NCBI GenBank assembly: GCA_942493105.1
Contig: OW818668.1
Location: 2,000,408 to 2,032,407, forward strand
Reading direction: 5' to 3'
Length of the DNA stretch: 32,000 nucleotides
Origin: an uncultured Erysipelotrichaceae bacterium
Lineage (GTDB): Bacteria > Bacillota_I > Bacilli_A > Erysipelotrichales > Erysipelotrichaceae
Part shown: one piece after another, positions 2 through 32,000 of the stretch
Layout of the letters: each line of letters opens with the position of its first letter
How positions within the stretch are numbered: position 1 is the first letter of the stretch
The notes under the pieces: model-generated
Seen by the model: only the letters and a program-made list of their open reading frames with translations
What the model was told of the DNA's origin: nothing
The model's database searches: none
Made by a program: the position numbers and the translations under genes

Positions 2-1411
2 TTTAGAATCACAGATTCTAAAACCATAGAATTTGAAGACAGTTGGAAAGCCTATATCTCCAATCCTGAAAATTCAGCCAACTTAACCCAAACTTTAAAA
101 TCTTATAAGGAAAGTAAATTCTTTCTATGCTTAAACAACAGCAGTGTGATCTATCGCGATATGGTTGTTCCAAAAGCCAGTCCTCGCTATCTTACTGCCT
201 TGATTCGTCATGAACTAACGCATACTTTAAATCTTAGCAATGATTTTCTAATGGATTATACAATTTTAGGAGATACTTTAAGTAATGGCAAAAAAATGCA
301 GAAGATCCTTGTCGCAACCATACTGGCCTCAAATCTAAACGAGATCCTAGAATACTTTGAAAAGATCGGTCTACAGATTTCTAAAGTCGATGTTTCACTA
401 AACAGTCTTATGAAATATGTCGACATCACAAAAATTGCCAGTAAAGAAAAAAACACTTTGATAACAGACATCAGTTCAAATTCGATTCGTCAGTATTTAT
501 TTGAAAAAGGTAAATACAGCTATTACAGAACAACCAAAATCACAGCTTATCAAGAATCAGAGGAACAACTTAGTTTAGAAAGTACAACCGAAATCATAGA
601 AAAAATGCTTCAATTTTCTTTATCTCTGGGTCAAAATTCTGGTATTGATCAAATCTACCTGTTTGGATCTTATCCTAAAATCGAACATCTTAAAATTTAT
701 ATGAATGAAACCCTTAATGTTGATACACAGGTCATTTCTAGACCCAAAATCCTACATGAGACCAAACGCAAACCATTCAATCATGTTTTTATCTATGCTT
801 TAGGATTACTCTTTTCACAACGCTTCAAACGTAAAAAAGACATCAATTTGATATCACCGTATAATGTCTTTTACTCTAAAAGCGCAAATGCCATCAACTT
901 TGATGCGATCTATAATTCTTTAGCCTTTGGATTAGGTTATCTTGCTTTATTTGGAATCGTCATCACGACTCTTCAAACCAATGCCGTCAATGCCAACATT
1001 AAAAAAATCAATGATTATTTTAATCGTCCTGACATCATACAAGCTTTAAGCGAAATCTCTGAAATGAAGGCCACGATTGCTTCACTTAATGAGATCACAA
1101 AGGAGCTCGATAGTATTCAACTTGTCCTTGACAGTATCCCCCGCTATACCGATCTTAAAATTCAAGATCTGATCTTGATCAAACCTACAGGTGTTGATTT
1201 TAGTAAAATTGCCTTTATTGATAATGTCATTACGATTTCAATCATAGCAGAAGACCCAAGTATGATTTATGAATATGTACTAGAACTTAGTGAAGTAGAA
1301 ACCTTTAGTAAGGTAACCTATACCAGTTATCAAATGGAGACCAATTCCAAAAAATATACATCAGAGATTCATTTGACATTAAGCGAGGAAACTAGCCATG
1401 AAAATAACTAA
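2..1411 (+). CDS. pilM: Type IV pilus assembly protein: PilM-like actin-fold domain fused to a PilN-like segment; 5' end lies outside the window
   Basis: The frame is open from nt 2 with no stop before the track's GTG at 146 (FRITDSKTIEFEDSWKAY...), so the gene is cut by the window edge. The N-terminal part resembles PilM (IYLFGSYPKIEHLKIYMNETLNV). It is followed in the same ORF by DINLISP (nt 839-859, like the PilN INLLP motif), one TM helix (LAFGLGYLALFGIVITTL) and a coiled-coil/periplasmic-type tail. Confidence 0.6.
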   Translation, partial: FRITDSKTIEFEDSWKAYISNPENSANLTQTLKSYKESKFFLCLNNSSVIYRDMVVPKASPRYLTALIRHELTHTLNLSNDFLMDYTILGDTLSNGKKMQKILVATILASNLNEILEYFEKIGLQISKVDVSLNSLMKYVDITKIASKEKNTLITDISSNSIRQYLFEKGKYSYYRTTKITAYQESEEQLSLESTTEIIEKMLQFSLSLGQNSGIDQIYLFGSYPKIEHLKIYMNETLNVDTQVISRPKILHETKRKPFNHVFIYALGLLFSQRFKRKKDINLISPYNVFYSKSANAINFDAIYNSLAFGLGYLALFGIVITTLQTNAVNANIKKINDYFNRPDIIQALSEISEMKATIASLNEITKELDSIQLVLDSIPRYTDLKIQDLILIKPTGVDFSKIAFIDNVITISIIAEDPSMIYEYVLELSEVETFSKVTYTSYQMETNSKKYTSEIHLTLSEETSHENN

Positions 1412-2045
1412 AAAAGACATCATGTATCTGAAGTGGCTTGGTCTATTTTTGGGCATCTATGTCTTTTGGACTTACTTATGGTTACCCATGAGTACAACAT
1501 TGAGTACTAAACAAGTTCAGCTTCAAGAACTTGAAACTCGATATATGGTCGCTGAACAAACGATACCGACACGAAATACGGTTAAAAATCTAGAGATGGA
1601 TGCGAAAGCAAAAGCCAAACTCAAATTCGAACAATTCTTTGATGTGCTTACACCGGCTCAAACAGAAGCAATCTTAGTTCCCATCATCAAAGCACATCGA
1701 GCTAAAATAAGTTACTTTCAAGTTTCTGATGCACAAGTCGTCGTACCTGAAACTACATTGAAACTTGAAGAACAACTTAGCTACAAAATCAAAGAATTGA
1801 TTGATCTCTACAACAATATGACCACACAAGATCCTAAGCTTCCGATCACTCAGTCTCAACTGCTAAAAACACAGATCACGTATTTGGTCGATGTATCTTT
1901 TGAAGACTATAAAGCTTTATTAAAGACCATTGATGATATGGAAGTAACGATCCTGCTTTCATCTTCTGAGTATGATTTCAATGATAAGGTTGCAGAAATG
2001 GTATTTGATATTTATTCTATAGAAAAAATAGATTTCGTCCAATAA
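1398..2045 (+). CDS. pilO: PilO-like bitopic pilus alignment protein
   Basis: It overlaps the upstream gene by 14 nt. It has an N-terminal TM helix (WLGLFLGIYVFWTYLWL), a coiled coil (KQVQLQELETRY) and a C-terminal globular part. It sits between pilM/N and pilB. Confidence 0.5.
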   Translation: MKITKKDIMYLKWLGLFLGIYVFWTYLWLPMSTTLSTKQVQLQELETRYMVAEQTIPTRNTVKNLEMDAKAKAKLKFEQFFDVLTPAQTEAILVPIIKAHRAKISYFQVSDAQVVVPETTLKLEEQLSYKIKELIDLYNNMTTQDPKLPITQSQLLKTQITYLVDVSFEDYKALLKTIDDMEVTILLSSSEYDFNDKVAEMVFDIYSIEKIDFVQ

Positions 2046-2137
2046 GAAAATCTTGATCATCTAAAATGTCCCATTATTTCATAAAGGCGTTTTTTGATGT
2101 AAAATGAAGCTTAGAAAACAAACACAGAGGTCCGTTT

Positions 2138-3796
2138 ATGAAGCATGCATCCCTAGAAGAAATGCTCGTCAATGAAAAGATCATTACTCAAGCTCAATTA
2201 GAAGAAGTCAATCTGATTCAGAAAGAAACAGGTCAGGCTACTTTTTATATCATCCTAGATCATCAGTTTGCCAAAGAAAAAGATGTTTTAAGAATCCTTG
2301 CTAAAAGTCTAAAAATGGATTTTGTTGACAACCTCATCAACAACATCAACACAGATGTGATACGTTCTTTTCCACAACAATTGGCTCAAAAATATAAAAT
2401 GTGCCCTTTAAGAGTTCATGAAGGAACCCTTACATTGGCTACCAGCAATCCATTTAACGTTACCGCAATAGAAGACATCAGTATGCTGATTGGACTCTCT
2501 ATCAACACAGTATTGTCTACCAAGACCGATATTGAAGTAGCCATCGATCGTCTTTATACAAAACGCAGTGAAAAGAATGAGCAAGGTGAAGACATCGCCA
2601 ATGAAGGTGATGAAGCTGAAAACGAAGCAACCGTAGAAACATCATCTGTAGTTAGGATCGTAAACAATCTGATCATCGATGCGTATAAAGTCAATGCCAG
2701 TGATATCCATATTGAACCAGAAGCCAACTTTACCAGAGTACGATTCAGAGTTGATGGTGATCTAATAAAGCATATCGATTTCGATAAAGAAAAACACTCT
2801 TTGATTTCTACCCGCATCAAGATCTTATCTGGCCTTAACATCGCAGAAAAACGCTTGCCTCAAGATGGCAGTTTCCAATTCAACCATGACTTTAAAAAAA
2901 TAGACATCCGAGTATCTACCTTACCAACCCCTTATGGCGAAAATATCGTCATGCGTCTTTTAGGGGCTGATCAAAACATCGAGTATTCATTGTCTGGTTT
3001 AGGAATTTCTCCCGCAACGATCATGACCATTGAGAAAGCCATTCGTGTTCCTCATGGGATCATTTTGGTCACAGGACCTACCGGTTCAGGTAAGACCACG
3101 ACCTTATATTCGATCTTAGCGAAATTAGCAGTTCCTACCAAAGCCATAAAGACCGTTGAAGATCCCATAGAACGAAAATTTGAAGGCATCACTCAAGTTC
3201 AAGTCAACCAAAAAGCTGGTTTGACTTTTGCGGCTGGTCTACGTTCAATTTTACGTCAAGATCCTGATATCATCATGATCGGTGAGATTCGTGATACAGA
3301 AACCGCAGAAATCGCCATCAGATCTGCCATTACCGGTCACTTGGTCTTATCGACCATCCATACCAATGATGCTTTATCTTCAGTCATACGTTTGGTCGAT
3401 ATGGGCATTGAGCCTTTTAAAGTAGGATCCTCATTGGTCTGTATTATTTCACAACGTTTGGTTAAAAAGATCTGTGTCCACTGTAAGAAAAAAGTTGACA
3501 TAAGCACAACTGAAGCTCGTTTACTCGCGACTGATTTAACCTATGTGTATGAAGGTGCAGGTTGTCCAAAATGCAACAATACCGGATATAGCGGCCGCTT
3601 AGCTGTCTTTGAGATCGTCTTGATTGATGGACACCTAGAAGATTTGATTTCTCGTGGTGCTTCATTAGAAGACCTTAGAAACTATGCTAAAGAGAAGAAG
3701 ATCCCAATGTTGAGAGATGAAGTTATGAACTATGTTCAAATTGGAACAACTACTGTAGAAGAAGCCTTACGTATCTTATATAATGTTGAAAACTAA
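2138..3796 (+). CDS. pilB: Type IV pilus extension ATPase PilB (GspE/PilB family)
   Basis: N-terminal T2SSE_N-type domain. Walker A GPTGSGKTTT, Asp box, Walker B DPDIIMIGEIRD, His box LSTIHTND. Tetracysteine C-x2-C ... C-x2-C (CVHCKKK ... CPKCNNTG). RBS AGAGG 7 nt upstream. Confidence 0.9.
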   Translation: MKHASLEEMLVNEKIITQAQLEEVNLIQKETGQATFYIILDHQFAKEKDVLRILAKSLKMDFVDNLINNINTDVIRSFPQQLAQKYKMCPLRVHEGTLTLATSNPFNVTAIEDISMLIGLSINTVLSTKTDIEVAIDRLYTKRSEKNEQGEDIANEGDEAENEATVETSSVVRIVNNLIIDAYKVNASDIHIEPEANFTRVRFRVDGDLIKHIDFDKEKHSLISTRIKILSGLNIAEKRLPQDGSFQFNHDFKKIDIRVSTLPTPYGENIVMRLLGADQNIEYSLSGLGISPATIMTIEKAIRVPHGIILVTGPTGSGKTTTLYSILAKLAVPTKAIKTVEDPIERKFEGITQVQVNQKAGLTFAAGLRSILRQDPDIIMIGEIRDTETAEIAIRSAITGHLVLSTIHTNDALSSVIRLVDMGIEPFKVGSSLVCIISQRLVKKICVHCKKKVDISTTEARLLATDLTYVYEGAGCPKCNNTGYSGRLAVFEIVLIDGHLEDLISRGASLEDLRNYAKEKKIPMLRDEVMNYVQIGTTTVEEALRILYNVEN

Positions 3797-3920: not shown

Positions 3921-4700
3921 ATGGACATTAAATTTCAAAAGCTTAGACGTTTTAACTTAATCATGGGTCTATTTCATTTAGTTCAAGGGGTAGCCATGTT
4001 GTTTCTGGCAACCAGTGTGATTCAAAAAATCGCAGCATTTCAACCTACAGTCGTTCAGTATTTCTTACAATTCAATTTAGCAACACAATCTTTGGAACCA
4101 GCCGTTAAAGATTTGTTCCAGTTGCCCTTTGGCATCTTGGTTGCCAGTTTCTTATTGATTTCAGCGCTTGCACATGGTTTGATCTATCTCAGCGGTGATA
4201 AATACATCAATGATCTAAAGAAAGGCATCAATCAATTCCGTTGGTTTGAATATGCTTTCAGTTCTTCCATCATGATCGTCTTGATTGCTACCCTATTTGG
4301 CGTTTACGATATTGGCTCACTTGTTTTAATTTTCTTGGTCAATGCAGCCATGAATCTGTTTGGTTTAGATATGGAACTCATCAATGCCGGAACTAAAAAA
4401 GAAAAAGTAAACTGGGGTCCATTTATTTGGGGTTCAGTCGCAGGCTTAGCACCTTGGATCGTCATCTTATTGTATATGTTTGGCTCTGGTAATTTCGATA
4501 TGACCCCATGGTTTGTATGGGCCATCGTCGGGACCTACTTCGTTGCCTTCAATACCTTCCCCATCAACATGATCCTGCAATACAAACGTGTTGGAAAGTG
4601 GAAAGATTACCTCTACGGAGAACGTGTCTATATCATCTTAAGTTTAGCTGCTAAATCGATCTTGGCTTGGTTGGTTCTGTTTGGAGCCATGCAGCCTTAA
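3921..4700 (+). CDS. Heliorhodopsin (7-TM retinal-binding protein, inverted-topology rhodopsin family)
   Basis: 259 aa with 7 predicted TM helices. Motifs match my recollection of heliorhodopsin 48C12 along the whole length: FNLIMGLFHLVQG, NQFRWFEYAFSSSIMIVLIA, GERVYIILSLAAKSILAW. Schiff-base Lys K245 (nt 4653-4655), counter-ion Glu E110 (nt 4248-4250), His19 and His85 are present. RBS AAGGAG 9 nt upstream, with terminators on both sides. Confidence 0.8.
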   Translation: MDIKFQKLRRFNLIMGLFHLVQGVAMLFLATSVIQKIAAFQPTVVQYFLQFNLATQSLEPAVKDLFQLPFGILVASFLLISALAHGLIYLSGDKYINDLKKGINQFRWFEYAFSSSIMIVLIATLFGVYDIGSLVLIFLVNAAMNLFGLDMELINAGTKKEKVNWGPFIWGSVAGLAPWIVILLYMFGSGNFDMTPWFVWAIVGTYFVAFNTFPINMILQYKRVGKWKDYLYGERVYIILSLAAKSILAWLVLFGAMQP

Positions 4701-12861: not shown

Positions 12862-12937
12862 TGGTGGTTCCGGCCGGAATTGAACCGGCGACACCTTGAT
12901 TTTCAGTCAAGTGCTCTACCTACTGAGCTACAGAACC
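12862..12937 (-). tRNA. tRNA-Phe (GAA), CCA encoded
   Basis: Cloverleaf read by hand. Anticodon loop CUGAAAA, T-loop GGTTCAATTCC, acceptor GGTTCTG/CGGAACC. Confidence 0.9.
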
Positions 12938-12938
12938 A

Positions 12939-13015
<77 letters not shown>

Positions 13016-13041
13016 ATAAGGAAATGAACTGGCAATTAAAA

Positions 13042-13118
<77 letters not shown>

Positions 13119-13149
13119 ATAAATAAGTAACCAAAACTTCGAGTAAAGA

Positions 13150-13238
13150 TGGCGGAGGAAGTGGGATTCGAACCCACGCATGCTTTCACATCTGCTGGTT
13201 TTCAAGACCAGTCCCTTAAACCGCTTGGGTATTCCTCC
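13150..13238 (-). tRNA. tRNA-Ser (UGA), long variable arm
   Basis: Anticodon loop CUUGAAA, long extra arm, discriminator G, CCA encoded. Confidence 0.9.
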
Positions 13239-13249
13239 ATTGTTAGAAA

Positions 13250-13326
<77 letters not shown>

Positions 13327-13331
13327 ACATT

Positions 13332-13408
13332 TGGTAGCGGGAGTCGGATTCGAACCGACGACCGACCGGGTATGAACCGATTGCTCTAGCCAACTGAGCT
13401 ATCCCGCC
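13332..13408 (-). tRNA. Elongator tRNA-Met (CAU)
   Basis: Anticodon loop UUCAUAC. Acceptor GGCGGGA/TCCCGCT fully paired, so it is not an initiator. Confidence 0.85.
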
Positions 13409-13421
13409 ACAAATTTTAAAC

Positions 13422-13498
13422 TGGTCGGGATGACAGGATTTGAACCTGCGACCCCTTGATCCCAAATCAAGTGCACTACCAAGCTGTGCTACATCCCG
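13422..13498 (-). tRNA. tRNA-Pro (UGG)
   Basis: Anticodon loop UUUGGGA, 5' CGGGATG acceptor. Confidence 0.9.
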
Positions 13499-13517
13499 AT
13501 GTATGATGGTAATAAAA

Positions 13518-13594
13518 TGGCGCGCCCAGCAGGAGTCGAACCCGCAACCCTTTGATCCGTAGTCAAATACTCTATCCAATTGAGCTATGGGCGC
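13518..13594 (-). tRNA. tRNA-Arg (ACG)
   Basis: Anticodon loop CUACGGA. Confidence 0.9.
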
Positions 13595-13626
13595 AATGTG
13601 GTGCTTGGACAACACAAGTGCAAACG

Positions 13627-13713
13627 TGGTGGGGATGAAGGGACTTGAACCCTTACGATGTTGCCATCAACGGATTTTAAGTCCGTTGCGTCTGCCTATT
13701 CCGCCACATCCCC
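13627..13713 (-). tRNA. tRNA-Leu (UAA), long variable arm
   Basis: Anticodon loop CUUAAAA, long extra arm. Confidence 0.9.
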
Positions 13714-13716
13714 AAT

Positions 13717-13790
13717 TGGAGGTTCCTGTCGGAATCGAACCGACGGTCACAGAGTTGCAGTCTATTGCCTTACCACTTGGCTAAGGAACC
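13717..13790 (-). tRNA. tRNA-Cys (GCA)
   Basis: Anticodon loop CUGCAAC. Discriminator U73, typical of tRNA-Cys. Confidence 0.9.
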
Positions 13791-27283: not shown

Positions 27284-27361
27284 TGGGGCGACCGACGGGG
27301 CTCGAACCCGCGAGTGTCGGAGCCACAATCCGATGCGTTAACCAACTTCGCCACGACCGCC
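27284..27361 (-). tRNA. tRNA-His (GUG) with encoded G-1 and CCA
   Basis: Anticodon loop UUGUGGC. An extra 5' G sits opposite the C73 discriminator. Confidence 0.85.
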
Positions 27362-28198: not shown

Positions 28199-28221
28199 AG
28201 AAAAACCGGGTTTTACCGGTT
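28199..28221 (-). terminator. Terminator of the Tad-like operon
   Basis: Minus strand AACCGG-TAAAAC-CCGGTT followed by TTTCTT. It overlaps the stop codon of the TadE-like gene. Confidence 0.5.
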
Positions 28222-28551
28222 CATCGGCCGTGTGATCAATTGAATCATCGCGGACTTTTCATAATTAAGCAAAGGAATGCTTAACGGATAACTAACTTTG
28301 ATAGAATAACGCTTGGTCAGTTCATCTTGAGTGATGGTAGAAGAACAGAAACTGCATTGAATAGGATGATTTTGAATCAACAACGCAACAGATTCGTCAT
28401 AACGATTTTGATGTTCAATAAGCGCTAAAATCGTTTCTCCAAAAAGTCTGGCTTGATTCTGTGATAAGATCACTTGCGTAAAACTCATGCCCAAGATCAC
28501 AAACATCATACCAAACAGAAAGACCATACCTAATTCAAATGCCCCTTTCAT
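28213..28551 (-). CDS. TadE-like minor pilin / pseudopilin
   Basis: 112 aa. N-terminus MKGAFELGMVFLFGMMFVILG has a short charged start, a Glu, then a hydrophobic helix. Its ATG overlaps the stop of the flp-like ORF (TAATG). Located downstream of tadC-flp. Confidence 0.5.
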   Translation of the reverse strand: MKGAFELGMVFLFGMMFVILGMSFTQVILSQNQARLFGETILALIEHQNRYDESVALLIQNHPIQCSFCSSTITQDELTKRYSIKVSYPLSIPLLNYEKSAMIQLITRPMNR

Positions 28552-28697
28552 TAGCTGTTAGAGGTCATTTGAGCCCACTGCGCCGATAAAGTTTCCTGCA
28601 TCGTTGTTTTAAATCCTTCTGAGAATACAATCATTCCAGTTGCGATCACGGTTACGACCAATACCAATCCATACTCTTCAAAAAATGCTTTCATCAT
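28551..28697 (-). CDS. flp: Flp-family pilin candidate (47-48 aa), absent from the supplied ORF track
   Basis: Hand translation: MMKAFFEEYGLVLVVTVIATGMIVFSEGFKTTMQETLSAQWAQMTSNS. EYGL followed by about 20 hydrophobic residues is the Flp core. GGAGGTGAG directly upstream contains the tadC stop codon TGA. Either of the two tandem ATGs (28697 or 28694) may be used. Confidence 0.65.
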   Translation of the reverse strand: MMKAFFEEYGLVLVVTVIATGMIVFSEGFKTTMQETLSAQWAQMTSNS

Positions 28698-28698
28698 C

Positions 28699-29454
28699 TC
28701 ACCTCCTTTCAAACATCGTCATCAAGACACTCATCATGGCACTTAGGAAAACCAAAGTCACTCCAATTAACGGGATCATCCCTAACCATTGGCTGATCAT
28801 CAATTGCTTTTGTTTGGCATATTGACGTTCTTGCCTTAGCCACTTGGAAGTCGATGCAATCATTCGATTAAACTGTCTTGAGGCATCTTGTTGGCCTGTG
28901 TTTTCAAATCTATACAACCACTTCATGGCTCTTTGAATCTCAGAAAGCTCCAATCGGCTCATAAACGCTGTATATGAGCTCAATCTTCCAGGTTGCGAGA
29001 GTAATCTCTGATGCAGTAACTTGAGTTCTGAACGAAGATACAAAGGTGCTTGAGGGATCGAACACTCTATAGCTTTGATGACCGTATTGTTTTGAAGCAA
29101 GATTTGAAGCTGTCTCAAATAAATCGGAAACTGATAGCGGATCAGATCAGACTGTCGTTTGACTTCAGATTTCAAAGAGAACCAAGGGCTGACATAGATC
29201 AATAAGATCAAGCTAATAAACAACAGATCAAATTGAATTGAATTGACCCAGACTAAGGTAATCATCCAAGCCCAACGAACTTGATGACTTCGTCTATACC
29301 TCCTTCTTTGCCACAAACTGGGGTTTTCCTTTTCTAAAATCCAAAAATAATGAATAAGTTTAGCATCTGATAAACGACTGATCCAAGGTTCCAAAATAGG
29401 ATCAAGGGCAATCCAACTCAAGAGAATGATCCAATGAAGAACTATATTTTCCAT
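28699..29454 (-). CDS. tadC: TadC-like platform protein (T2SS-F domain)
   Basis: N-terminal TM helices, a cytoplasmic helical T2SSF-like region (IRYQFPIYLRQLQILLQNNTVIKAIE ... EIQRAMKWLYRFENTG) and a C-terminal TM pair. Confidence 0.6.
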   Translation of the reverse strand: MENIVLHWIILLSWIALDPILEPWISRLSDAKLIHYFWILEKENPSLWQRRRYRRSHQVRWAWMITLVWVNSIQFDLLFISLILLIYVSPWFSLKSEVKRQSDLIRYQFPIYLRQLQILLQNNTVIKAIECSIPQAPLYLRSELKLLHQRLLSQPGRLSSYTAFMSRLELSEIQRAMKWLYRFENTGQQDASRQFNRMIASTSKWLRQERQYAKQKQLMISQWLGMIPLIGVTLVFLSAMMSVLMTMFERR

Positions 29455-30248
29455 ATTTCCTCACGTTCTTCGATCCATCGCTTAGATAGTAGATTTTGAA
29501 CTACAGCAATCGTAATCTGAATCATCAACATAAAGATCAGTAATGCCATATCCGTTAAGTTCATTTGAGCTTGTAAGCCTGTTTTCTTGAGCATGGATTG
29601 ACTGAAATAAGCAATGAACAAGGCAAAGATACTTAAGAGAATAATGCGGTTTCTTTGTTGTTTCTCCATTTGTTTGAACAGTAAAGTATCTTCGGCCCAT
29701 TCTTCAATATCATCTTGAATGATATCTAAACTTAAACCATAATCATGCGTTCCAAATAATTCGACTGCGACCATCAAATGAATCAAATTCCCAATGACAA
29801 AATGAGGATATGATTTTAGAAAAAACAACGCCGAATGATTTAGATCTTTACCTTGTTCAAGATCATTGATCCAAGCTAGAACCGATTCTTTAAGCTTACC
29901 TTTGATCAGATCTTGACTCTCGGTAAAACTGAAGTAGATCTTAGGATGATGTTTAAACAGAGCCAGAACTTGTTGAAAAAAATCAATCATCATATAGAAA
30001 TCTGTTTCTTGTCTTTTATAGATCTCTTCAGTAATGGAAAACCAGATCCCTAATCCAAATGCACTGGTCATGATGATAAGTTGATTGATGATACCTAGAC
30101 CTAATAAGTATCCAAGAATATAAAAAACAAAAACCGACACTAGTCCAAACAGACCGTGTTGAGTCAACCAGATCCAGCGTCTAGGTTTCACGATGGATAC
30201 CTTTATTCGGCAATTCATCAAAACTAAGCTCTGGATTCTTCTCATCAT
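29442..30248 (-). CDS. tadB: TadB-like platform protein (T2SS-F domain)
   Basis: Same architecture as tadC. The start is uncertain: the track ATG overlaps tadA by 68 nt, and an in-frame GTG at 30191 would overlap by 11 nt. Confidence 0.55.
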   Translation of the reverse strand: MMRRIQSLVLMNCRIKVSIVKPRRWIWLTQHGLFGLVSVFVFYILGYLLGLGIINQLIIMTSAFGLGIWFSITEEIYKRQETDFYMMIDFFQQVLALFKHHPKIYFSFTESQDLIKGKLKESVLAWINDLEQGKDLNHSALFFLKSYPHFVIGNLIHLMVAVELFGTHDYGLSLDIIQDDIEEWAEDTLLFKQMEKQQRNRIILLSIFALFIAYFSQSMLKKTGLQAQMNLTDMALLIFMLMIQITIAVVQNLLSKRWIEEREEIWKI

Positions 30249-31170
30249 CTTTATAAATCAAGATCGTCTTGGGTTTAAAATGTTCATCCAAGTGATAGTA
30301 CACTAATTCTCTGATTTTCCTTCGTATGCCTTTGGATGAGCTTTGAATTTCAATATGAAGCCCAAAATCAAGTGTGGAATGAACAAGAGCCAATAGATTG
30401 GTGTTTGTGACATCCACTTCAGGCATCATATGCATTAAACGCTGAGGAATCGCACTGGCATTTTCCGCATGAACCGTACTTAAGACACTGGCTCCTGTCG
30501 AACAGCTTTGAATCAGTTGCATGACTTCCCTACCTCTGACTTCAGACACACATATCCAATCCGGTCTTTGTCTTAAGGCTGCTTTTATAGCAGCCTCATA
30601 ATCAAATAAAGGGCTGATTTTGATCATTACGTGATCTTTATGCGGATGAATCTCACCATAGCGCAACTCTAGGCTATCTTCGATCGTTATGACACGCTGA
30701 TAAGCTGGAATACTTTTCATCAGATACTTTACCAATTCTGTTTTACCGCTGCCAGGCAAACCACTGATCAAGATATTTGATCGAGCTTTGATGGCATCCT
30801 TAAGTAACTCGATGACCCATGCAGGTGCATAATTCTTCATCATCAGATCACTGATTCTTAATAACGCTGGTGTCTTACGGATTGAAATGCTTAAGCCACT
30901 GCGACAAACACTCTGATGAAGCATACTAATGCGCAATTCTTTGGTTTCGGCTTCTAGGATAGGCGAACTGATATTGAAAGGCAAATTGACATAATTTGCG
31001 ATCTTATAAGCAAAGGCCTGCATAAACTCATGCGCAGTAAATGGTTCAATCGGATATCTTCCTTTTTCTAGATGATCGACCCAACACTGTTTACCGTTAT
31101 AGTTGATGTCGGTTATTTGATCATCTCTAACCCAAGGGCTTAATATCCCAAAATCAAAGTCATCGTTCAT
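30181..31170 (-). CDS. tadA: TadA/CpaF-type secretion ATPase (VirB11-like)
   Basis: Walker A GLPGSGKTE, Asp box ITIEDSLEL, Walker B RQRPDWICVSEVRG, His box LSTVHAEN. At 329 aa it is short for CpaF. Confidence 0.8.
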   Translation of the reverse strand: MNDDFDFGILSPWVRDDQITDINYNGKQCWVDHLEKGRYPIEPFTAHEFMQAFAYKIANYVNLPFNISSPILEAETKELRISMLHQSVCRSGLSISIRKTPALLRISDLMMKNYAPAWVIELLKDAIKARSNILISGLPGSGKTELVKYLMKSIPAYQRVITIEDSLELRYGEIHPHKDHVMIKISPLFDYEAAIKAALRQRPDWICVSEVRGREVMQLIQSCSTGASVLSTVHAENASAIPQRLMHMMPEVDVTNTNLLALVHSTLDFGLHIEIQSSSKGIRRKIRELVYYHLDEHFKPKTILIYKDDEKNPELSFDELPNKGIHRET

Positions 31171-31858
31171 GAAGCACCTTGATCAACGCAGTACCTTCAA
31201 TCAAAATACTTTCTTGGTCTGCATTTTGACCAGAACTTGGAGTTATGATGAGATCCCCCAATTCAATGGCTTTGGTCAAGAGTGATACTTGATCTTGATT
31301 GAGTGCAATCAACATCAACTTAGGATAATCTGTTGCCTTTTCAAGTTCTTTTCCATTTTTATCTTTAAGACTTAATATTCTAACATTACTGATCAATCGA
31401 TCCACGACTGTCAATCGATTGTGTAAGATTGAAATATACAGATCAACTTTTTGATAGGGTTGCAGTGTATTTCCTGAGGTCATTTTTAAATCGACATCCA
31501 ACGCATAGACCACTTGGTTATCCAACAATAAAAGACTTGGGGAATCCTTAGCCTCTTGGATGGATTCAACCATTGAATCATAGATAAAACTACCCTGTGG
31601 GATCTGTGATCGAATCAGTGTGTATTTGCCGATTAGATCTTTGATATCTAGTACGATAGAGGTTTGCAGATAAGCTTTGGGAACCTTGATCATCACGATG
31701 TCTTTTTCACTGATCAATGTCCTGGGTTGTAGCACATTGGCAGCTATAGGTACATCCACCAGGTCTAAGCGTTGATCGACATAAATCTTTGATCCCAAAT
31801 ATGCAATACCGCAAAGTGCTGCTGCCAATAAACCCAATATGATTCTATTCGATTTCAT
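31160..31858 (-). CDS. cpaB: CpaB/RcpC-like Flp pilus assembly protein
   Basis: N-terminal TM anchor. SAF-like segment (VPIAANVLQPRTLISEKDI) and RcpC-like C-terminal region. Overlaps tadA by 11 nt. Confidence 0.6.
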   Translation of the reverse strand: MKSNRIILGLLAAALCGIAYLGSKIYVDQRLDLVDVPIAANVLQPRTLISEKDIVMIKVPKAYLQTSIVLDIKDLIGKYTLIRSQIPQGSFIYDSMVESIQEAKDSPSLLLLDNQVVYALDVDLKMTSGNTLQPYQKVDLYISILHNRLTVVDRLISNVRILSLKDKNGKELEKATDYPKLMLIALNQDQVSLLTKAIELGDLIITPSSGQNADQESILIEGTALIKVLHER

Positions 31859-32000
31859 GTTCTACCTCGATCATGGTTTCTTCTGCTTTTAAATTCAACT
31901 CAAAAAGCGATCCTATATCTGTCGCTTCGATTCTAATCCTTAATGCGAGCGGATCTGAAATAAAACCCATCAGATCGATTTTATAGATGACTGATTTTTG
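31845..32000 (-). CDS. 3' end (51 codons) of an unidentified gene running off the right edge; first visible gene of the Tad-like operon
   Basis: Open frame from nt 32000 to TAG at 31845-31847 (..QKSVIYKIDLMGFISDPLALRIRIEATDIGSLFELNLKAEETMIEVEHEIE). It overlaps the cpaB start by 14 nt. It was too short and partial to appear in the ORF track. Confidence 0.4.
   Translation of the reverse strand, partial: QKSVIYKIDLMGFISDPLALRIRIEATDIGSLFELNLKAEETMIEVEHEIE

Follow-up and report, generated by a model that had tools for sequence, protein, structure and literature searches.

Does every type IV filament need a prepilin peptidase? The question is raised by a seven-gene cassette near the right edge of a 32,000-nucleotide stretch of contig OW818668.1 from an uncultured Erysipelotrichaceae bacterium (the whole stretch is called the window below), in which a 47-residue protein resembling the Flp major pilin and the 112-residue protein encoded after it both begin with practically no leader. 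The class III signal peptide, defined as a hydrophilic leader ending in Gly or Ala, followed by 20-25 hydrophobic residues, often with Glu5, and cleaved by an A24-family peptidase, is treated together with its removal as a defining, universal trait of type IV pili (T4P), the pseudopili of type II secretion systems (T2SS), Com and Tad pili, and archaella (PMC10191384). Tentatively, and as a reading with slightly less than an even chance of being right, we take the locus to be a compact Tad-like or type IVc-like filament cassette of monoderm Erysipelotrichaceae whose subunits have lost this leader and are used unprocessed. With a little more reserve still, we suggest that it represents a clade of type IV filament machines that would polymerize primary translation products beginning with Met-Lys, without any prepilin peptidase, and in which an intrahelical Lys2-Glu6 pair would replace leader removal.

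The cassette consists of gene X, a CpaB-like gene, a TadA-like ATPase gene, a pair of TadB-like and TadC-like genes, the gene for the Flp-like protein, and the gene for the 112-residue protein, in an order that is kept in about 75 species-level loci (related loci and homologous proteins are cited below by L and P numbers). The Flp-like major pilin candidate is encoded on the minus strand at 28551..28694 (47 residues, MKAFFEEYGLVLVVTVIATGMIVF...), and the DNA reading, the homologues, and the profile alignment agree that it is leaderless. The minus strand around its start reads ...GAAAGGAGGTGAGATGATGAAAGCATTTTTTGAAGAGTATGGA..., and the product reads (M)MKAFFEEYGLVLVVTVIATGMIVFSEGFKTTMQETLSAQWAQMTSNS, with (M)MKAFFEEYGLVLVV..., that is, MKAFFEEYGLV..., as its N-terminal part. 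A Shine-Dalgarno sequence GGAGG (28706-28702) is followed by the TGA of the preceding TadC-like gene (28701-28699), two consecutive ATG codons (28697-28695 and 28694-28692), and the Lys codon AAA (28691-28689); the reading frame ends with TAA at 28553-28551. The second ATG, 7 nucleotides past GGAGG, is at the conserved start position, and the first, if used, adds one Met to the protein.

A word-indexed protein search yielded 108 database homologues of the Flp-like protein, all from Erysipelotrichaceae-type sources, and KAFFEE[YF]G is present in every one of them (108/108). A genomic scan with one genome per species gave 80 loci, from Erysipelothrix inopinata, E. tonsillarum, E. urinaevulpis, Traorella, Massilicoli, Copranaerobaculum, and many metagenome-assembled genomes among others, and the motif could be located in 77. 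The codon preceding the Lys is a start codon in all 77 (ATG 63, TTG 5, GTG 3, ATA 5, CTG 1), GGAGG or GGGGG lies at a constant distance 5' of it with the geometry seen here, and in-frame translation upstream of it is not conserved, several loci having an in-frame stop 1-4 codons before the start (L026, L028, L032, L046, L052, L061, and L069). It is thus confirmed that the short, Gly-less N-terminus of the Flp-like protein is real and not a miscall.

The gene for the minor-pilin-like protein (28213..28551, minus strand; 112 residues, MKGAFELGMV..., open reading frame MKGAFELGMVFLFGMMFVILGM...), which is likewise leaderless, begins at the ATG at 28551-28549 and overlaps the pilin stop by 1 nucleotide (TAATG); in the 75 loci compared, the start either touches the pilin stop or overlaps it. 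All 75 members of this family start with M-[K/R] and have Glu at position 6, and position 3 is G in 61, A in 9, L in 2, and S, Q, or M in 1 each. M1-K2 and E6 are the elements found to be invariant in both the Flp-like and the 112-residue proteins. The initial annotation, whose transcription of this sequence was correct at its coordinates, had described both proteins as having almost no leader and had asked whether this short, Gly-less N-terminus would be conserved in relatives, and on both counts the loci above bear it out. The resemblance that it saw between the two N-termini is also there, as an ungapped M1-K2-x3-x4-x5-E6 and not as the gapped alignment of K-AFFEEYG with KG-AF-ELG that it had drawn. 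Gly3 of the 112-residue protein, on the other hand, is not a fixed residue, as the counts for position 3 show, and the annotation's label "TadE-like" has to be given up, since neither the protein nor its orthologues match TadE (PF07811) at E<=10, and the protein is pilin-like by modelling only. In an AlphaFold2 model (mean predicted local distance difference test score, pLDDT, 84), a helix spanning residues 2-48 is followed by a second helix (53-61) and three strands, which would correspond to the lollipop topology of a pilin. The family matches DUF4320 (PF14208) at only 12.7 bits (E 0.14) and 13.7 bits (E 0.066), below the gathering threshold of 25 bits.

How the Flp-like protein relates to known pilins can be judged from its conservation and its alignment. 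The first 24 residues of the family hardly vary, whereas the C-terminus does; this is the pattern of a pilin and not that of a signal peptide. When the leaderless family was aligned with Caulobacter-type Flp using hhalign (probability 64%, E 6.5e-5, moderate support), E7-Y8-G9-L10 fell on E19-Y20-G21-L22, which is E5-Y6-G7-L8 of mature PilA. The Flp-like protein would accordingly be a mature Flp with two additional N-terminal residues and with Lys where Gly(-1) sits, as the initial annotation had proposed, and we regard this assignment with moderate confidence. The Joint Genome Institute (JGI) name "Flp pilus assembly pilin Flp" is carried by three close homologues (P0017, P0024, and P0042). 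Many of the 47-residue homologues (P0005-P0045) are labelled "DUF1697 family" by the same source; this label is probably a mis-annotation, because the underlying Pfam match is sub-threshold at 18 bits (E 0.0036; cut-off 24.4) and lies over the transmembrane helix.

The same N-terminus extends beyond these species. An exhaustive profile search with the leaderless family retrieved leaderless relatives only, in 17 clusters that all read M-K-x-[FLS]-x-E-E-[YM]-G from residue 1. Four distant cassettes (L008, L009, L142, and L143) carry several pilin-like genes each, all of them starting M-[K/R]-x-x-x-[E/Q]-E-Y-G and some of them coding for proteins (136 and 261 residues) whose C-terminal domains are large, along with an ATPase gene, a gene for a fused platform-like protein of 490-544 residues, and homologues of the 112-residue protein and of gene X. 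The C-terminal domains that follow the shared N-terminal module in these cassettes are 36, 57, 61, 98, 136, and 261 residues long, which indicates a pilin set, because a common N-terminal module on varied C-terminal domains is its hallmark. Distant members give sub-threshold matches to Flp1_like (E 1e-3 to 1e-2) and Flp_Fap (E 0.014 to 0.08).

Of 16 distant pilin-like proteins, 6 have I, D, E, K, or M at position 3, and this, together with the S, Q, L, or M of 5 of the 75 minor pilins, does not fit a residue -1 described as "invariably Gly or Ala" (PMC10191384). Class III leaders also normally vary in length (PMC10191384), so that an N-terminus of fixed length, in 77 species and in paralogues, suggests that it is functional in itself. 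We favour unprocessed use of the subunits because the feature spans this wider clade and because position 3 is often neither Gly nor Ala.

If the subunits are indeed used as made, the 47-residue major and the 112-residue minor subunit would be synthesized as Met-Lys followed by a hydrophobic helix and would insert with the N-terminus inside, Lys2 and the free N-terminus being the sole positive-inside signal. Their extraction and polymerization, without prior cleavage, would then be the work of the TadA-like ATPase and the TadB/TadC-like platform. Met1 would be kept, since methionine aminopeptidase leaves a Met that is followed by Lys in place. The invariant Glu6 lies one helical turn from Lys2 (i, i+4) and may neutralize it, which fits the homologue P0153 (MGKFIEEYG), where the Lys comes one residue later and a second Glu (Glu7) preserves the i, i+4 spacing. 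E7-Y8 may take the role that E5-Y6 has in canonical Flp filaments. In the Caulobacter Tad pilus, E5 forms hydrogen bonds with Y6 and a backbone atom of neighbouring subunits and not with the N-terminal amine (PMC11067988); therefore, two added N-terminal residues are not obviously incompatible with packing.

No gene for an A24 peptidase was found in the window, in the cassette, or within 10 kb on either side of it across about 85 related loci. Loci L002-L009 and L142-L145 likewise have no Peptidase_A24 (PF01478) entry in their precomputed Pfam tables. A six-frame search for GxGDxK, which we take to be the A24 active-site motif, returned nothing plausible in 1.3 Mb (the window and +/-10 kb of at least 80 cassettes) or in the distant loci, this search being a heuristic and not a hidden Markov model test. 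In the closest relative (L012, with a 96% identical Flp-like protein), gene X is preceded by rnfCDGEAB; the cassette therefore has seven genes, with nothing tadV-like past the right edge of the window. The initial annotation had noted the lack of a peptidase gene among the operon genes and had named a tadV gene just beyond that edge, or a conserved upstream start with a normal leader, as findings that would speak against it: in the place of the former, L012 has rnfCDGEAB, and of the latter there is none in the 77 loci. The one upstream candidate that it mentioned and doubted, TTG at 28712-28710, stands directly before the Shine-Dalgarno sequence, would translate it in frame as KGGE, and shows no conservation as a start codon.

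A peptidase is nevertheless to be expected elsewhere in the genome. The window also holds a type IVa pilus (T4aP) module on the plus strand (146-3796), with a PilM-PilN fusion of 421 residues, a PilO/T2SSM-like protein, and PilB. Identical copies of this PilB and of the CpaB-like protein of the cassette were looked for and not found on record, and PilO recurs only on a contig of 1.4 kb. In relatives with a 74% identical PilB (L093-L095, 4300-11650), PilC and canonical prepilins are encoded directly upstream (MISNQKG/LTLLE and NRKG/FTMLE, and a 494-residue pilin-like protein with QNKNG/VALIT); PilD was not found within 10 kb of pilB in these relatives. Since the T4aP locus of the lineage carries canonical prepilins, a prepilin peptidase is almost certainly encoded somewhere in the genome. 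The normal leaders of these prepilins serve as an internal control as well, and the lineage has therefore not generally shortened its pilin leaders.

Several observations weigh against unprocessed use, the near certainty of a peptidase in the genome being one of them. Leader removal precedes assembly in every type IV filament studied (PMC10191384). Within the Erysipelotrichaceae, position 3 is Ala in 77/77 Flp-like proteins and Gly or Ala in 70/75 minor pilins, with Lys at -2, which resembles a trimmed ...K-G/ site, and PibD, an archaeal A24 enzyme, cleaves engineered leaders of 3-4 residues (PMC4187195). As to whether the subunits are pilins in the first place, the homology to Flp is moderate, as stated above, the Flp-like protein of the window has no match to Pfam Flp_Fap (PF04964) at E<=10, and a Foldseek search of the PDB with the model of the 112-residue protein gave nothing below E 0.1 and no known pilin.

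These points lead to a serious rival, which we consider possible though on the improbable side: the class III signal peptide may have been reduced to M-K-A in the Flp-like protein and M-K-G in the 112-residue protein, perhaps also in gene X, and be cut after residue 3 by the PilD/ComC that serves the T4aP and Com pilins. Measured against the features of class III signal peptides (IPR012902), the proteins have the hydrophobic helix, no leader other than this tripeptide is possible, and the mature products, FFEEYG... and AFE..., would both have Glu at +3. Besides the small residue at position 3 and the Lys at -2, the proposal is consistent with gene X mostly beginning MKG or MKS, with leaders ending in Gly or Ala (PMC10191384), with the cleavage of engineered leaders by PibD, and with the presence of pilMN-pilO-pilB in the window and of the prepilins QKG/LTLLE and RKG/FTMLE in relatives, which imply a peptidase. 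A cut after Ala3 would also make Phe the residue at +1, which is what T4a pilins have there. What argues against it is the residue at position 3 where it is S, Q, L, or M (five minor pilins) or D, E, I, K, or M (distant leaderless cassettes), and a length that is invariable in 77 species and in paralogues, which would be unexpected for a segment that is discarded. Furthermore, E-Y would be placed at +4/+5 instead of the canonical +5/+6, and no cassette has a linked peptidase. We know of no natural bacterial leader of 3 residues. If processing does occur, the peptidase of the T4aP/Com system is most likely the enzyme responsible. Of the three options that the initial annotation had left open (unprocessed use, trimming by another enzyme, and a peptidase encoded elsewhere), the first, which it considered would be an unusual type IV filament variant, thus survives as the leading reading and falls short of proof, with the minimal M-K-[A/G] leader as its competitor.

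It is unlikely that the products are not pilins at all, in which case the 47-residue product would serve as a small subunit in the membrane or as a Sec-type signal peptide that sets a short peptide free, and the cassette a secretion or DNA-transfer ATPase module without a filament. Such an interpretation could draw on the lack of above-threshold matches of the window proteins to Flp, Flp1_like, TadE, and T2SSF, on the PDB, which held no pilin match to the Flp-like profile by sequence or to the 112-residue model by fold, and on the ATPase, which is as close to VirB11/TrbB as to CpaF. However, a near-invariant N-terminal helix with a variable C-terminus is the reverse of a signal peptide, E-Y-G aligns with E5-Y6-G7 of Flp, and relatives have several paralogues in which a common N-terminal module bears differing C-terminal domains. 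The lollipop-like model of the 112-residue protein, the CpaB-like gene and the TadB/TadC-like paralogous pair in the same cassette, and the sub-threshold Flp1_like and Flp_Fap matches of distant members also point to pilins.

Still less credit is due to trimming of the N-terminus by another enzyme, either an aminopeptidase removing Met1 or a Lys-specific protease producing the canonical AFFEEYG register. Loss of Met1 alone would place Glu at +5 in both proteins (Lys1 ... Glu5), and a cut after Lys2 would give the exact Flp register; yet the cassette encodes no candidate protease, methionine aminopeptidase is inactive before Lys, and no type IV filament is known to be processed in this way. A cut behind the invariant Gly9 (MKAFFEEYG/L) was also considered and rejected, as this residue corresponds to G7 of mature Flp in the alignment and has no counterpart in the minor pilin. 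Finally, an annotation artefact, with the true start lying upstream and coding for a normal Gly-containing leader, is scarcely credible: the 4-32 additional N-terminal residues of some database entries begin at the GTG of the Shine-Dalgarno sequence or inside the upstream gene, are unconserved, and lack G/XXXXEY spacing, several species have an in-frame stop 1-4 codons before the start, and the start itself is fixed in 77/77 loci.

Those database extensions deserve a word of their own. Five-residue "leaders" (MDAIK, MDDLK, MSCIK, and the like) might be mistaken for a variable cleaved leader and were rejected as such; they are confined to loci with ATA, CTG, or TTG as the conserved start, and they are gene-calling artefacts, because the caller fell back on the GTG within a GGGGGTG Shine-Dalgarno sequence. 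An upstream in-frame start in general was rejected in the same way, given that the extensions are unconserved, that several species have stops, and that the GTG/TTG candidates fall within the Shine-Dalgarno sequence or immediately precede it. ATA (L063, L065, L081, L086, and L087) or CTG (L085) apparently serves as the start codon of the pilin gene in six Erysipelothrix-type species, and public databases hold spurious 4-residue extensions (MDAI-, MSCI-, MDDL-) for species with ATA or CTG starts.

The remaining genes of the cassette, all on the minus strand, are conserved to differing degrees. Gene X extends past the right edge of the window, which contains its 3' end (31845..32000; ...DPLALRIRIEATD...ETMIEVEHEIE, then the stop). 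In L012 (6476-6850), the full-length gene encodes 124 residues (MKGIMMAVGLFVL...), and the products of relatives have about 121-124. Members of the family have 106-130 residues, an N-terminal M-K-[G/S] followed by a transmembrane helix, and a C-terminal acidic motif E-[ET]-M-I-E-[VE]; they match nothing in Pfam or NCBIfam, and the homologues in distant cassettes have 157 (L008) and 128 residues (L009). The CpaB/RcpC-like protein (31160..31858, 232 residues) has an N-terminal transmembrane segment and SAF and RcpC-like domains, with matches below the curated cut-offs in each case (TIGR03177, E 6e-13, 48.5 against 71 bits; Pfam RcpC, 4e-4, 20.6 against 28.8 bits; SAF, 1e-3), and its orthologue in E. 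inopinata (L002) has a precomputed PF16976 match. A subset of relatives (L016-L021, L041, L046, L047, L050, L051, L055, and L058) has no CpaB-like gene, and in them gene X stands immediately before the ATPase gene; CpaB is therefore either dispensable for the cassette or supplied from elsewhere.

The ATPase (30181..31170, 329 residues) is a short member of the TadA/CpaF/VirB11/FlaI class of secretion ATPases (Pfam T2SSE, 1e-30), and its PDB matches are Archaeoglobus fulgidus GspE (5e-22), FlaI (5e-17), VirB11 (2e-16), and CpaF (2.5e-16). The first of the two polytopic membrane proteins, TadB-like (29442..30248, exact start uncertain), matches no family by itself in Pfam or NCBIfam; its operon position is kept in about 75 loci, and its family is paralogous to the TadC-like one (hhalign probability 91%, E 1e-6). 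The TadC-like protein (28699..29454), a platform candidate whose last codons hold the pilin Shine-Dalgarno sequence, has T2SSF as its top Pfam family, sub-threshold in every case (E 0.024 here; found for 6/29 orthologues, best 0.0023). Profiles of the two proteins retrieved nothing relevant from the PDB, and a single-sequence AlphaFold2 model of the TadC-like protein (pLDDT 51) was not used. A search of PHROGs returned generic ATPase families only. A terminator-like hairpin with a T-run (28203..28222, minus strand) overlaps the stop codon of the 112-residue gene and marks the end of the operon. Conserved motifs in the 112-residue protein include QAR, EHQNRYD, and CxxC; EHQNRYD (residues 46-52) and the two cysteines (C66 and C69) are invariant in 22 homologues, and the latter suggest disulfide formation or metal binding in the head domain.

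The operon adjoins coaX at a conserved chromosomal position in many relatives, which suggests that the cassette has been inherited vertically in the Erysipelotrichaceae and not recently transferred. A lone tRNA-His gene (27284-27360, minus strand) lies just downstream of coaX. The contexts of the divergent leaderless cassettes, which were recovered from L008 (Logan ERR11570228), L143/L144 (SRR8925784/71), L009 (SRR35032023), and L142 (SRR29213552), resemble mobile elements or phages. Genes for a dUTPase, SSB, and an intein-containing NrdD are neighbours in L008, and those for a dUTPase, FHA and PP2C proteins, and a Ser/Thr kinase in L143/L144; the cassettes of L142 and L009 adjoin genes for very large surface proteins (1165-1366 residues, Ig/fn3-like) and a resolvase. 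A further pilin-like open reading frame (MKAFLEEYGIIII...), truly leaderless, lies beside serine recombinases in L141 (IMG/VR UViG 2889557958_000003), and three other viral-contig matches of the leaderless pilin were rejected as chance matches. As part of the reading put forward above for the whole clade, and held with the same reserve, the versions of the Erysipelotrichaceae would be chromosomal and vertical and the divergent ones carried on mobile-element-like DNA, and within the superfamily the clade would be the first to do without a peptidase.

The closest known system is the Tad/Flp (type IVc) pilus, as represented by CpaA-F/PilA of Caulobacter, Flp-Tad of Aggregatibacter, and Tad of Bifidobacterium. 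The likeness lies in a short single-helix subunit (45-47 residues compared with 45 in mature PilA) with E-Y-G-L near its N-terminus, a motor ATPase of the CpaF/TadA class (GspE, FlaI, and VirB11 match equally well or better), two paralogous platform-like membrane proteins along with a CpaB/RcpC-like protein, and a pilin-like protein encoded right after the major subunit. In contrast, the cassette has neither a leader nor Gly(-1), where it has Lys, so that its major subunit is not a G/XXXXEY prepilin. It also lacks a linked TadV/CpaA and any TadZ/CpaE ParA-like ATPase, TadD, TadG, or secretin, its platform, CpaB-like, and pilin sequences fall below the curated family thresholds, and its 112-residue protein lies outside Pfam TadE. 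Because of the missing G/XXXXEY prepilin, linked TadV, and TadZ, and because of these sub-threshold proteins, we do not file the cassette as a member of Tad.

Other systems are less similar. Archaeal T4P and archaella, with their PibD, FlaK, and EppA substrates, share with the cassette a [K/R] plus small residue before the hydrophobic helix, and archaeal GspE/FlaI are no more distant from the cassette ATPase than CpaF is. Their natural leaders, however, usually have 6-12 residues (PMC4187195), compared with a maximum of 3 here, and they always depend on an A24 enzyme, whereas the cassette has no linked peptidase. The T4aP/Com pili of monoderms, encoded in the same genome, belong to the same filament superfamily, but canonical leaders are retained on their pilins, which have Gly at -1 and Glu at +5. 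Clostridial Flp1_like (PF16982)/DUF4320 (PF14208) loci have, as far as is known, leader-bearing pilins and a CpaA-type peptidase; all matches of the cassette family to these two Pfam families are below the gathering thresholds. The canonical tad operon in Bulleidia extructa (Erysipelotrichales), which has 13 genes and starts with tadV, is a different locus (PMC12786226). In the literature on leaderless or peptidase-independent pilins, on DUF4320, and on an Erysipelothrix tad locus or prepilin peptidase, we found no description of the cassette, nor any of type IV pilins that lack a leader or are independent of a peptidase.

Elsewhere in the window, a full-length heliorhodopsin gene (PF18761, E 4e-94; 3921-4700, plus strand) lies directly downstream of pilB. 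A cluster of ten tRNA genes occupies 12862-13790 on the minus strand (Phe, four Met with CAT anticodons, Ser, Pro, Arg, Leu, and Cys), and some of the CAT-anticodon genes may encode initiator tRNA or tRNA-Ile2.

Under either of the two surviving readings, the family is an exception to the class III signal-peptide rule, and the cassette would be a new type IV filament variant. If the subunits have no leader, processing would not be mechanistically needed for membrane extraction and polymerization, and the cassette would be a natural minimal assembly system, with seven genes and a 47-residue subunit. If M-K-[A/G] is cleaved instead, with Ala at -1 and Glu at +3, the substrate range of bacterial prepilin peptidases would be extended, and the tripeptide would, to our knowledge, be the shortest natural leader. 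Software for finding pilins depends on the class III leader, and leaderless filaments would be invisible to current predictors. The family that hosts the cassette includes both animal pathogens (Erysipelothrix) and gut commensals; adhesion and DNA uptake are both candidate functions of such a filament.

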